From a virus (lineage: Duplodnaviria; Caudoviricetes): a DNA stretch of 64,000 nucleotides. Of the stretch, positions 1-58,460 are shown one piece after another. Under the pieces are notes generated by a model that had not been told where the DNA came from, did not search any database, and saw nothing but the letters and a program-made list of their open reading frames with translations. The DNA is taken from positions 1 to 64,000 of IMG/VR virus record IMGVR_UViG_3300018475_000104; one strand, given 5' to 3'. The first letter of the stretch is position 1. Each line of letters opens with the position of its first letter. Made by a program: the position numbers and the translations under genes.

Positions 1-60
1 AATCGAACCATCGACACAGGGATTTTCAGTCCCTTGCTCTACCGACTGAGCTACCCGCCC
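1..60 (-). tRNA. tRNA-Phe(GAA), 3' end outside the window
   Basis: Reverse complement GGGCGGG-TA-GCTC-AGTCGGTA-GAGC-A-AGGGA-CTGAAAA-TCCCT-GTGTC-GATGG-TTCGATT. Confidence 0.9.
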
Positions 61-508: not shown

Positions 509-610
509 AAATATGTTGTGGTGTCATAAGGGCAGACTTTGCATCGTTAATCCACAAAAGTTTCACCGCTTGGTGCCCCTGCGCAGATTTGAACTGCGGA
601 CACCGTGATT

Positions 611-1099
611 TTTTAGTCCTTCAGAATTGGCAATTACAAAGTTTCTAACACTTTTTCTAGTTTAAAATCTTCTGCAAACAAAATATTCTTTGTTTGCCCA
701 TTTTTTGTTGGCACAAATCTTATTCTTTGACTTCTTTTTCCACACAATTCATAAGGAACAAGATAGCATTGTCCATTATAAATTGTAGCAAAGAAATCTA
801 CATCTTCTTCTGAATAAGATAAGTTTAAAGTACCTTTAGTGTTTGTATGACTTGTACTCGTGGCGAACTCTAAAAATGCTTCTTCTTTATAAGTTCCAGT
901 TTTAACTTGAATCTTATATAGAGAATGATTTATGTCCACAATAAAATCATACTTTGAACTCTGAACCATCGGCTTAGAAACTAAAATTCCCAATTTTAGA
1001 AATTCCAAAGCCACTTGTTGTTCTGTAATTTCTCCTATAAAATGACTACTTAGCATAATATCAACTCCTACTAAGTAATTGCCATTCTACATGAGTCTA
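611..1099 (-). mobile_element. Endonuclease-carrying anticodon-loop insertion with complementary ends (not a group I intron)
   Basis: Only about 43 and 23 nt flank the ORF; ends pair (TTTTTAG/CTAAAAA, AGAAT/ATTCT, GGCAATTA/TAATTGCC); no terminal G or P7 core. Confidence 0.75.
634..1056 (-). CDS. PD-(D/E)XK homing endonuclease (I-Ssp6803I / PDDEXK_5-like)
   Basis: G..E..V..F...G..VS.P...SKYDFIVD...KIQVKT motif; AGGAG RBS. Confidence 0.85.
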   Translation of the reverse strand: MLSSHFIGEITEQQVALEFLKLGILVSKPMVQSSKYDFIVDINHSLYKIQVKTGTYKEEAFLEFATSTSHTNTKGTLNLSYSEEDVDFFATIYNGQCYLVPYELCGKRSQRIRFVPTKNGQTKNILFAEDFKLEKVLETL

Positions 1100-1171
1100 A
1101 AAAGTCACGTGCTCTACCAACTGAGCTACAGGAGCATGAGCGTCATTTTGGATACGAGGCGACTAACTCTT

Positions 1172-3268: not shown

Positions 3269-3417
3269 TTTTACCTCCGATAGGAAAAGAAAATCAGATG
3301 GGGTGACAATTCCCATATCTCCATCGCGGCGAAGGCTGCCCGTTCCTTCCTCTGATTTTCTTTTAATGGTGCGGAAGACGGGAATCGAACCCGTATGCCC
3401 TTGGGGCGAGGGATTTT

Positions 3418-4131
3418 CTTACTACTCCATATTACTATGGCCGTATTTCTACGTTGTAGTCTGGACTATGTCTTAACCATATCTTTTGACTTAGGTTGCT
3501 GGTGTATAGTCTCTACACATTTATTTGGCGCAGTTTTTTCCTCTATAAGACTCTGTAAAAGCGTGGCAATTAGGACACAATAAAGCAAAATTTTCTATTG
3601 TATTATTATGTCTGTTGCCATCTTTATGATGTAATTCAAGTGGAATTGGTTTATCTAACCAAGTTTCAAGACCACAGCATTCACATCTATGTTCTTTCAA
3701 CCCTTCTTCTAAGAGCTTAATCCTAACTTTATTTGTTTGAATATCTTTGCTATTGGCTAAATATTCTTCTAAAGTTAATTTAGGCATCTTTTTTGTTAAA
3801 CCTTTTCCAGCTTTATTACCATCATATTTTAAACCAAGTCTGTCTAAAATAGAGTTAATTGTTTTTGGATTGCAAGCGAGTTGTCGCGCCATATAGGCTT
3901 TTGATTGCCCCTCTTGTATCCATTGTTCAATTTCTGCTTTTCGTTCTAAAATATCAGTTCGCATTTCCATCACCTCTCATAATATAAGTGGATTTGGATT
4001 ACACTTACTTTAACTTTTTAGAACGTAAACCAAAATTTAGCACGGCGTCCTCTTGGCTATTCGCCGTTTTAGCCAGCTTCTACTCTTAAAGTTTCCTTTA
4101 AGGCACTCTCCTTTTACGTCTGCCAAGACGA
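3418..4131 (-). mobile_element. Group I intron with HNH homing endonuclease
   Basis: 5' exon ends in U and intron ends in G; R/S elements GTAGAGACTA and AAGACATAGTCC (P7); P3 GCTGG/CCAGC. Confidence 0.92.
3521..3973 (-). CDS. HNH homing endonuclease (intron-encoded)
   Basis: CECCG...LELHHKDGNRHNN..ENFALLCPNCH. Confidence 0.92.
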   Translation of the reverse strand: MMEMRTDILERKAEIEQWIQEGQSKAYMARQLACNPKTINSILDRLGLKYDGNKAGKGLTKKMPKLTLEEYLANSKDIQTNKVRIKLLEEGLKEHRCECCGLETWLDKPIPLELHHKDGNRHNNTIENFALLCPNCHAFTESYRGKNCAK

Positions 4132-4252
4132 AAGTCCCTTGCGTCTGCCTGTTCCGCCACTCCCGCATACTCAGTTGAAGTCTCCCTCAGCCTTGTATAT
4201 ATATTATATCAAAACTTTTGAAATTTTTCAAATTTTAAACACTAAAGAATTT

Positions 4253-30071: not shown

Positions 30072-30152
30072 TTTTTAGAAGAAAGGGACAAAATTTGATT
30101 TTTGTCTCTTTTTTTGTTATAATTAAGAAAAGTAAAATAGGAGAAAAATATA

Positions 30153-31163
30153 ATGGAATTATTTCTTATAAGTATTATAGGTTGTTTAATTATAGGTTTC
30201 TTATTTTATATAGATAGTAGAAATAAGAAACATAAGTAGAAAGAATAGGAATATATTAATAAAATAAAAGAATAGGAAGATTTTATTTAGAAAGCAAAAG
30301 ATGATAAAATTGAATTGTTAGATAGTGATGTTGCAGTATTAAAATAGAAATTAAAAAATTTAGTTGATGAAATTTATGAAAAACAAAGGCTTAATAAAGA
30401 ATTAATTAAACTGCGCCAAGAAGAACTTGATGAAATAATTAAAAAAGAAAGAATTGAAAAGCAGAAGAGTCTTGAAAATGAAATGATTGCTTTTCGTCAA
30501 TCATAGCTTGCTCAAATTAATGCAGAAGTATCTGCAAATCAAATGCTTTTTGAACGAAAGAAAGAAGAATTAGCCAATATACTTTCTGCTGAAAAAGAAA
30601 AGTGTGAAGCTGAGGTCTCTAAAATAAAATTGTAGCTTGAAGATTTTCGTATACAGCGCGAAAGCGTTAATCAAGCGATTCTTCGAGAAAAGGAAATTCA
30701 AGAACAACAAGACTTTTATAGAATTGTTGTTACAGAAAAAGAACAAGCTGACATTCAAGTCTTACAAGATATTATTCCGAGATTAAACAATCGAGAAGCA
30801 ATTTCAAAATTAATTTGGGAATTGTATATTCGGCGCCCTGTACAGGAAATGATAAAGCGAATCACAAAAGGAAAAAAGATTAGTGGTATTTATAAGATAA
30901 CTTATTTAAAAACTGGCGAAGCGTATATAGGAAAGACCACTGATATATCTACTCGTTGGAATAACCACCTAAAAACAGTTTGTGGTTTAGAAGGCGCGGC
31001 GCATTCTACATTACATACTCATATGGAAAGAAACGGTTTATGGAATTACACTTTTGAGATACTTGAAGAGGTTGATAAAGATAAGTTAAGTGAGCGAGAA
31101 GCTTATTACATTGACTTTTATAATACAAAGAACTATGGTTTAAATCAAAAACGAGGCGGATAA
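30153..31163 (+). CDS. TM-anchored coiled-coil protein with C-terminal GIY-YIG nuclease (7 in-frame TAG)
   Basis: Open frame from ATG 30153 with only TAG interruptions; SGIYKIT...YIGKT..RW..H. Confidence 0.82.
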
Positions 31164-54320: not shown

Positions 54321-54385
54321 ATTTTGACTTCCTTCGAAAAATATGTTATAATATTTATAGATAAAAAAGAGAAGGGAAAAGAACT

Positions 54386-54802: not shown

Positions 54803-55402
54803 ATGAAATTTACCGATATTGTTTCAAATGTAAAAATTTATGATTTAGAAGAATCAATTATCGCAAGTGGCTATCCTATGAGAACTAAAGCTGGTAGGCG
54901 AGAAGTTGAGGAGAAAGATATTAATCGGGGCGAAAAGTTAGTTAGGGCTACCCTTGGCGGTAATACCGCACATCATTAGTTCTTAACAGGTATTAGGGTA
55001 AACTTTGATTTAACTTTTACAAATAAGGCGTGGGTTGAAGCCGAAAGATATAGATTCTTAGAATTTGTTTCAAGCCAATCAACAATGCACAGAATTACTA
55101 AATTCAATTTAGATAATCAGTATATTAAATATGTTGACCCACGAGTTATTAAAATTATGCAAGAGTTGGTTGATGCATACAACGAAAATCCAACTCCAGA
55201 AAATTACTTAAAGGTTCTTTATACAAATCCCGCAGGTTTTAAAATTACTGCGCGCATGACTACAAACTATAGAAGTTTAAGAAATATTTATATTCAAAGA
55301 AAGAATCATAGATTACCTGAATGGCGCGCGTTTTGTAAATGGATTGAAACCTTACCTTTTGCAAAAGAGTTTTTAACTAATATTAATCAAGAAGAGGAAT
55401 AA
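54803..55402 (+). CDS. ThyX-like (flavin-dependent thymidylate synthase fold) protein (1 in-frame TAG at 54977)
   Basis: AHH[TAG]FLTGI.V.FD...RYRF..FVSSQSTMH, TTNYR.L..IY.QRK.HRL.EW. Confidence 0.75.
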
Positions 55403-55413
55403 TTCCTCTTTTT
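55392..55413 (+). terminator. Terminator-like hairpin whose loop is the thyX-like stop codon, immediately before the suppressor tRNA
   Basis: AAGAGGAA-TAA-TTCCTCTT-TTT. Confidence 0.55.
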
Positions 55414-55449
55414 ATAGCCGTGTAGTTTAATGGTAAAACGCCGGTCTCT

Positions 55450-56138
55450 AATTAAAAATTGGACACCAAGAAGGGAAACCGCTTGTGTGAATCGTGTCAA
55501 ATTCGGTAAAACTCTTTAGGAGAATACAATGGCAACAAAAATTTCACTTTTAAGTGACGAAGAATTTTAGAAAATAATTTATGAATCTTATTCCTATGCT
55601 GAATGTTGTAGAAAGATTGGATATAGTGATAAAGGAAGTCATGGCACAGATGCGATAAAGAAAAGATGTCAAGAACTTAACTTGTCTACTAGTCATTTTT
55701 CTAAGACCAAGGCAGCAAATAAAAGTAGCACAAAATATTCTTTAGATGATATATTGATTGAAAATTCTAATTATAAAAACATATCAAGATTAAAAACTCG
55801 ACTAATCAATGAAAACAAACTTGAATATAAATGTGCTATATGTGGTAATACTGGAGAATGGAATAATAATCCCCTAGTTCTTCAATTAGACCATATTAAT
55901 GGAAAACACAACGACCATCGTTTAGAAAATCTAAGATTCTTATGTCCTAACTGTCATTCTCAAACAGAAACATATTCTGGAAAAAATAAAAATAAAGACA
56001 ATACCGAGCTAAATCAGTAAAAAACTGTAAATGTGTAGAGACTAAACGGCACGAACCTAAACCCAATTTGGGCATGGTTAAGATATAGTCCAGACTACAA
56101 CACAAATAATTGTGGCCATGGTGACATGGAGTAGTATG
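55450..56138 (+). mobile_element. Group I intron with HNH endonuclease
   Basis: P1 TCT|AATT/AATTGGA with U.G at the splice site; P3 TCGTGTC/GGCACGA; GTAGAGACTA and AAGATATAGTCC (P7); terminal G. Confidence 0.92.
55529..56020 (+). CDS. Intron-encoded HNH endonuclease (in-frame TAG at codon 14, 55568-55570)
   Basis: AGGAG RBS then ATG 55529; CAICG...LQLDHING..NDHRLENLRFLCPNCHSQT. Confidence 0.88.
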
Positions 56139-56225
56139 AAAACCGTAATATCCTTCTGACGGAGGTTATCTGGGTTCGAATCCCAGCACGGCCGCCAATC
56201 AAATATTTTACTGGAGGACAGTCCA

Positions 56226-58426: not shown

Positions 58427-58460
58427 AAAAGAGAGGTATTTCTACCTCTCTTATTTTTTT
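58425..58460. terminator. Bidirectional terminator between convergent blocks
   Basis: AAAAAA-GAGAGGTA/TACCTCTC-TTATTTTTTT. Confidence 0.8.

Follow-up and report, generated by a model that had tools for sequence, protein, structure and literature searches.

A group I intron interrupts the anticodon of a probable amber-suppressor tRNA gene in a TAG-recoded phage

The DNA analysed here, referred to as the window, comprises the first 64,000 nucleotides of a linear viral contig of 109,534 bp (IMG/VR record IMGVR_UViG_3300018475_000104) that CheckV rates as 89% complete. At positions 55416-56197 (+) it carries a tRNA gene that is divided within its anticodon. Exon 1 (55416-55449 (+), 34 nt) encodes the 5' strand of the acceptor stem, the D arm, the anticodon-stem strand CCGGU and the loop nucleotides C32, U33, C34 and U35, and on inspection of the sequence its 3' end reads ..CCGGTCTCT. 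Exon 2 (56139-56197 (+), 59 nt) starts with AAAACCGT and supplies A36, A37 and A38, the anticodon-stem strand ACCGU, a 23-nt variable arm, the T arm, the 3' strand of the acceptor stem, G73 and a CCA end that is encoded in the gene. Between the two lies a group I intron of 689 nt (55450-56138 (+)) with an IC3-like core and G56138 as its last base. When joined in silico the exons give a 93-nt RNA with a perfect cloverleaf and CUA at positions 34-36, which ARAGORN calls as tRNA(cta); its body combines a long variable arm (class II shape) with a Ser/Trp-like anticodon arm. As the first-pass annotation had anticipated of standard tRNA scanners, the gene is missed both by default ARAGORN and by the Rfam tRNA model at its gathering score. 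When long introns are permitted, ARAGORN does place a tRNA at exactly 55416-56197, but it misplaces the intron and reads the anticodon as 'atg'.

The exon junction is set by homology together with the rules of splicing, because the joined exons align from one end to the other with intronless tRNA(CUA) genes. A search pattern derived from the predicted junction matched 21 IMG/VR contigs, 20 of them with an uninterrupted tRNA(CUA) at the match, and in the alignment the joined exons are collinear end to end with 20 intronless phage tRNA(CUA) genes reading ..CCGGTCTCTAAAACCG... Such intronless long-variable-arm genes (L001-L021, G007, G010 and the tRNA-TERM of Phass-1) have the same body as the window's gene, with a weak or mismatched 1:72 pair, G73 and the arm CCGGU-CUCUAAA-ACCG, the ARAGORN call for L014 ending one base earlier than G73; they differ in that they have no intron and are sited in tRNA arrays, whereas the window's gene is split and lies outside the array. 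Across the split loci (n = 7, two rows realigned by eye) the acceptor pairs 2:71 to 7:66 covary although their strands flank the intron on opposite sides, while at 1:72 the bases mismatch or pair weakly, and 6/7 loci have G at position 73; the window's tRNA has an A1xC72 mismatch and G73. Judging from the sequence, any junction other than U35|A36 would give no tRNA, and a working tRNA(CUA), its anticodon arm included, exists only after exact excision of the intron. The earlier proposal that CU|A is formed only once the 689-nt intron has been removed, with boundaries marked by a U.G pair in P1 and a terminal G, therefore holds, and the collinear intronless homologues bear it out.

Helices of the intron were placed with seven homologous introns from the same tRNA site, and pairs were counted over six aligned sequences including that of the window. 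P1 (55447-55463 (+)) pairs exon UCU and intron AAUU with AAUUGGA: U55447-A55463 and C55448-G55462 are followed by U55449.G55461 at the 5' splice site and then by four A-U pairs. The GGA guide of P1 is kept in all split CUA loci, and both the pairing of the 5' exon U with G in P1 and the terminal intron G are found in 12/12 of those that span both splice sites. P3 (55493-55498 / 56048-56053 (+)) forms 5/6 pairs in 6/6 sequences with 2-3 pair types each, and P7 (56040-56044 / 56086-56090 (+)), which encloses the 3' strand of P3, P8 and J8/7, forms 5/5 pairs in 6/6 sequences with two-sided changes. P4 (55502-55507 / 56003-56008 (+)) was located in the aligned homologous introns, and P5 (55513-55517 / 55994-55998 (+)) has a loop, L5, that is filled by an ORF plus its AGGAG (55518-55522). 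The P2 hairpin (55464-55487 (+), with a GGGAAACC-type loop), the P6 hairpin (56015-56027 (+)), P8 (56054-56079 (+)), P9 (56101-56114 (+)) and P9.1 (56116-56129 (+)) show compensatory changes, and over the six sequences two-sided changes preserve pairing in P2, P3, P6, P7, P8, P9 and P9.1. Minimum-energy folding of the intron, a method that cannot give the P3/P7 pseudoknot, recovered only P2, P7, P8 and P9. By comparison of sequences, covariation supports 55450-56138 as a group I intron with core helices P3-P9 and the P3/P7 pseudoknot. Its core motifs (GUAGAGACUA ... AGAUAUAGUCC) are presumably close to the cores of the Azoarcus and Anabaena tRNA introns, which we take to belong to subgroup IC3.

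Rfam model RF00028 gives the window's intron 22.1 bits (E 0.0034; gathering score 50), finding the 3' core (..GUAGAGACUAAACGGCA.. and ..AAGAUAUAGUCC..) and misplacing the 5' half into the ORF. The score is low because the ORF fills L5: an ORF-less homologue of 224 nt with the same core at the same site (L295) reaches 67.2 bits, above the gathering score, and has a 10-nt L5 where the window's copy holds the ORF, which is therefore an insertion in L5. A score under threshold is what might be expected if the gene were dead, its intron no longer splicing and the split tRNA a relic. Such a relic is most improbable, since the core helices are all intact, together with the U.G pair and the terminal G, the exons retain a perfect cloverleaf, and about 180 in-frame TAGs in the genome, most of them in structural genes, need a decoder.

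The ORF within L5 (55529-56020 (+), 163 codons) encodes a predicted HNH homing endonuclease, matching PF01844 with 26.5 bits against a cut-off of 21.4 and phrog_10822 with an E of 1e-52 over residues 5-159. Codon 14 is TAG (55568-55570), as had been reported at first reading; it falls inside the profile-matched region, and the translated ORF has no later Met for restart. At its 3' end the ORF extends over P5', P4' and the 5' strand of P6, with the TAA stop inside P6. It had also been suggested that the nuclease depends on the very suppressor that its intron interrupts. This stands in so far as the ORF is unreadable unless TAG is decoded, but not as a matter of design, for the number of TAGs in homologous intron ORFs varies from 0 (L289) through 1 (the window) to at least 4 at other positions (L293), and ORF-less copies exist. 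A search for close relatives of the HNH protein returned free-standing genes in tRNA arrays and no split suppressors. Free-standing homologues also lie directly downstream of intronless tRNA(CUA) genes (G010 94828-95443 (-); L267/L268 1408-1950), an arrangement that would fit the intronless allele as the predicted cleavage target. Bonocora and Shub are said to have proposed a pathway by which introns acquire nucleases, and we take the ORF-bearing, ORF-less and free-standing HNH forms to match it.

Coverage of the genome by ORFs rises from 65% to 91% when TAG is read as sense. As is characteristic of code 15, in-frame TAGs in conserved genes align with Gln and genes end in TAA or TGA. In alignments with relatives, TAG positions face Gln in 478 of approximately 970 aligned cells, the maximum-likelihood residue being Q by a wide margin, and TAG likewise equates to Gln against three complete relatives that use the standard code. 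The genome is thus TAG-recoded, and a suppressor is therefore needed. The use of TAG is uneven, with a share of Gln-type codons of 22% in the structural block (58-100 kb) and 6% in two other (early) blocks, and two large stretches (31-54 kb and 6.6-12.8 kb) are TAG-free. A gene for a GIY-YIG-type homing endonuclease (30153-31163 (+)) has seven in-frame TAGs within an otherwise nearly TAG-free replication block, and mobile nucleases seem to be TAG-rich in this genome. The terminase places the phage with large Firmicutes phages and the gut phage Phass-1, and not with crAss-like phages.

Charging of the spliced tRNA with Gln is not self-evident because of its long variable arm and Ser/Trp-like anticodon arm. 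With its long variable arm, its G73 and an anticodon arm resembling that of tRNA-Ser, the tRNA raised the suspicion that TAG means serine, a reading ruled out by the alignments, in which Gln is by far the best fit; in a complete recoded relative (G007) the only CUA tRNA is of the same long-variable-arm type, and TAG is Gln there too. Glutaminylation by the E. coli GlnRS is favoured by a weak 1:72 pair, G73 and U35, and the E. coli suppressor Su7 is a tRNA-Trp with anticodon CUA that is charged with Gln. Su7 and the window's tRNA presumably share A1, G73 and the anticodon arm CCGGU-CU-C?A-AA-ACCG, and both are predicted to be glutaminylated because they have U35, G73 and a weak 1:72 pair. They differ in the long variable arm of the window's tRNA, and comparison showed no clear resemblance to phage tRNA-Trp genes. 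Comparison of the tRNA body with the tRNAs of relatives gave no clear isotype, the nearest being other CUA tRNAs and odd tRNA(UAU) genes of 91 nt. The latter (G001 30116-30206 (-); G006 73988-74078 (+)) also have long variable arms and are the closest non-suppressor tRNAs to the suppressor body.

The split gene lies between ThyX-like and dUTPase genes, 51 kb from the tRNA array. In the closest complete relative (G010) these two genes are 58 nt apart, so that the split tRNA gene represents an insertion at a novel site. A sigma-70-like promoter (54324-54352 (+); 11/12, a consensus match only) heads the nucleotide-metabolism block that holds the split tRNA, and a bidirectional terminator (58429-58452) stands at its end. 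This bracketing suggests that the split tRNA would be expressed along with the nucleotide-metabolism genes, and expression of the suppressor with such genes is as expected from the general model of Borges et al. (10.1101/2021.08.26.457843). Directly upstream of the 5' end of the tRNA, a 7-bp hairpin followed by a T run (55391-55414 (+)) was seen by eye and was not called by the terminator scan; a leaky terminator and a processing signal are both conceivable. At the other end of the window, an Rfam 'skipping-rope' RNA (3290-3359 (-); 60.4 bits, gathering score 36.7) adjoins the tRNA array. A further tRNA-Lys(UUU)-like gene (571-1135 (-)) is split in its anticodon loop by an element of about 487 nt, as placed by ARAGORN with exact boundaries that are ambiguous; the element consists of an ORF for a PD-(D/E)XK endonuclease (PF11645, E 5e-27) and about 65 nt of non-coding sequence, in which group I core motifs are absent and there is no terminal G at the needed place.

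Whether the split gene is the only suppressor of this phage bears directly on what its splicing would mean. Since the contig starts inside a tRNA-Phe(GAA) gene of the array (window 1-60 (-)), the array is cut short and part of the genome is missing at that end. Nine tRNA genes are visible in the contig against 18-37 in recoded relatives. The six recoded relatives examined whole (G005-G010) each carry a single CUA tRNA, which has no intron and sits in the tRNA array, and no CUA tRNA was found in the three standard-code relatives. An intronless tRNA(CUA) may accordingly reside in the missing part of the array, in which case TAG decoding would not hinge on the split gene. We consider such a redundant copy possible but on balance doubtful. 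It would accord with the linear, incomplete contig that begins within the array, with the low number of tRNA genes, with the array position of the suppressor in 6/6 recoded relatives and with the insertion of the split gene far from the array between genes that are adjacent in G010; moreover, two or three CUA tRNAs occur in some phages (PMC10607447). It is less readily reconciled with the single CUA tRNA of each of the six recoded relatives, with the visible constraint on both exons and on the ribozyme core of the split gene, and with three other phages (G011, G012 and G014) in which a split gene is the only CUA tRNA found. The claim that all TAG decoding hinges on self-splicing is for these reasons sound in principle, and the genomes of G012 and G014 support it, but its premise of an only suppressor is unsupported for the present phage, where the contig is 89% complete and the array is cut.

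The first-pass annotation had proposed that code-15 phages be searched for further split suppressors, and that a gene of this kind might explain why some recoded phages lack an annotated suppressor. Besides the window, at least 16 phage or metagenome loci show the split at U35|A36: nine, from metagenomes and IMG/VR, have a class-II type of tRNA, and a further seven are IMG/VR CUA tRNAs among the matches listed. The former came from a pattern of intron 3' end plus exon 2, which matched eight metagenome contigs and one IMG/VR genome (G011), all split at U35|A36 and with introns of 218-681 nt where both ends lie on the contig. The latter came from a 17-mer of P7'/J7/9, which matched more than 113 IMG/VR contigs, at least seven of them with a split CUA tRNA and with short and long variable arms both represented; five of the seven among the matches listed were obtained by automatic rebuilding, one (L332) by hand and one (G013) via locus L372. 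All 12 in-silico spliced CUA products that were tested were called as tRNA(cta). The introns of six split suppressors are ORF-less and 205-253 nt long, and two of these suppressors belong to (near-)complete recoded genomes, G012 (165,650 bp, CheckV 100%, ORF coverage rising from 65% to 83% when TAG is sense) and G014 (159,495 bp, CheckV 90%, from 44% to 85%). By default ARAGORN neither has a CUA tRNA, and both contain a single split one, whose intron is ORF-less; in G011 (123 kb) too no CUA tRNA other than the split one was found. A split gene can thus be the sole suppressor found, and such genomes would therefore be listed as suppressor-less. Near other split suppressors lie a ROOL RNA (L329 6054-6628 (-); 299 bits) and a RAGATH-1 hammerhead ribozyme (L372 1110-1213 (-)).

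A pattern of terminal G plus exon 2 matched ordinary tRNA-Ser(UGA) genes, and introns followed by an exon 2 starting with CTAA, taken as candidates for further suppressors split at 33|34, rebuilt as tRNA-Arg(UCU) split at 34|35. The exact P1 23-mer had no match in metagenome contigs, nor had the intron core in GenBank phages, where exon 2 matched only the intronless suppressor of Phass-1.

The same intron family extends beyond suppressors. The window itself holds a paralogous copy of 714 nt (3367-4166 (-)) in a tRNA-Leu(UAA) gene at U34|A35, with an HNH ORF that lacks TAG. Among the 17-mer matches listed, 56 of the 88 tRNAs rebuilt around the core are Leu(UAA), the others being Arg(UCU), Lys(UUU) and so on; loci L305-L416 in IMG/VR place the family also in tRNA-Arg(UCU) at 34|35, tRNA-Lys(UUU), tRNA-Thr(UGU) and others. 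Leu and CUA copies belong to one and the same family, with 56-85% identity in the 3' core and no separation by host tRNA, and the target sites of both read CU(N)U|AAAA(U/C)C. Phage tRNA introns appear to be common, whereas according to a 2014 review every phage group I intron known by then lay in a protein-coding gene, even though phages carry tRNA genes in large numbers (PMC3984707).

Bacterial tRNA group I introns, namely those of tRNA-Leu(UAA) in Anabaena and plastids, tRNA-Ile(CAU) in Azoarcus and tRNA-fMet in cyanobacteria, are like the window's intron small ribozymes in the anticodon loop, with a 5' exon U paired to G in P1 and a terminal G, and the Leu(UAA) copy of this genome has the classic U34|A35 position of the bacterial tRNA-Leu(UAA) introns. 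The window's intron differs from them in that its host gene is a stop-codon suppressor, its host genome that of a phage and its site U35|A36, and in that its HNH ORF fills L5 and enters the core. Ribozymes have been linked to suppressors before, since theta (HDV-like) ribozymes adjoin the suppressor tRNAs of recoded gut phages (PMC10879173). Theta ribozymes cleave the 3' trailer, and the anticodon is formed without their help, whereas in the window the anticodon arm is absent until a ribozyme cuts and rejoins the RNA. Authors working on recoded phages describe suppressors that escaped detection and propose divergent tRNAs; in the open-access papers and bioRxiv preprints searched we found no mention of an intron-split suppressor, the theta ribozyme being the nearest idea.

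We consider it probable that the locus is a working amber-suppressor tRNA gene of a phage that reads TAG as Gln, interrupted at 35|36 by a mobile group I intron that is tolerated because it splices. The split gene would be transcribed with the surrounding nucleotide-metabolism block, and P1 (UCU/GGA with its U.G pair), the P3-P9 core and the terminal G would let the RNA excise itself, the anticodon stem probably aiding alignment of the exons. The resulting 93-nt tRNA(CUA), with its predicted Gln charge, would decode the in-frame TAGs, and the HNH gene in L5 would be the intron's homing nuclease. The intron itself is probably a selfish element whose family has spread widely among phage tRNA genes, above all Leu(UAA). 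A selfish origin would be favoured by the intronless suppressors of the equally recoded relatives G005-G010, and likewise by the single Leu/CUA family with its ORF-bearing and ORF-less forms, its free-standing HNH genes and its spread over more than 113 IMG/VR contigs. That the code switch needs a ribozyme, and the nuclease TAG decoding, is then best explained as a consequence and not as design. That G012 and G014 retain an ORF-less intron in the one CUA tRNA seen in each could also be expected of an intron that has come to serve a purpose.

A regulatory role would go further, with control exerted on the splicing of the suppressor precursor and, through it, on the time or the strength of TAG decoding. 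Ribosomes would halt at the TAG of codon 14 before any suppressor exists, so that the core could fold and the intron splice; as suppressor built up, read-through ribosomes would invade P5', P4' and P6 of the precursor and damp splicing, a negative feedback. The overlap of the HNH ORF with these strands and the early position of its TAG suit such a scheme, as does the split gene being the only CUA tRNA found in G012, G014 and the 123 kb of G011. For the T4 td intron, Gibb and Edgell (2010, cited in PMC3984707) reportedly showed that delayed translation of I-TevI is needed for efficient splicing. I-TevI, a TGA-recoded intron endonuclease in Agate phages and the endonuclease of the window's intron have in common an intron ORF that overlaps or neighbours the core and whose translation is expected late, and in the recoded phages (Agate and the window) the delay would come from in-frame reassigned stops, the intron endonuclease being expected to be held back until late in infection (Borges et al., 10.1101/2021.08.26.457843); theta ribozymes, too, have been proposed as players in code switching (PMC10879173). 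In the window, as opposed to I-TevI and Agate, the TAG decoder would be the product of splicing of the same intron, and the TAG is not conserved among homologues. Regulation of this kind nevertheless strikes us as unlikely. The HNH ORF of the L289 intron has no TAG at all and that of L293 at least four elsewhere; the feedback cannot be general because six split suppressors, those of G012 and G014 included, have ORF-less introns; and equally recoded relatives are served by intronless alleles. The suggestion of a timer or a GTP/Mg2+ sensor finds no counterpart in the sequence, where a ligand or sensor domain was not seen, and the related Azoarcus tRNA intron (205 nt) splices efficiently unaided in vitro at 37 C (PMC13168695). 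If the ribozyme were nevertheless a control point of the code switch, then in phages with a split gene as sole suppressor the rate of self-splicing would time the translation of the TAG-containing late genes, with the in-frame TAG giving feedback in ORF-bearing copies, an outcome to which we give little weight.

What appears to be new is the recurrence of the U35|A36 split, the existence of recoded genomes with no other CUA tRNA found and the wide distribution of the intron family in phage tRNA genes. Split suppressors provide a concrete and checkable class of hidden suppressor, missed by default ARAGORN and the Rfam tRNA model. The presence of one intron family in so many viral contigs likewise changes the picture of phage tRNA genes given by the 2014 review, which placed no phage group I intron in them. 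Finally, if splicing proceeds as predicted, the change of genetic code in some phages would physically require a ribozyme.
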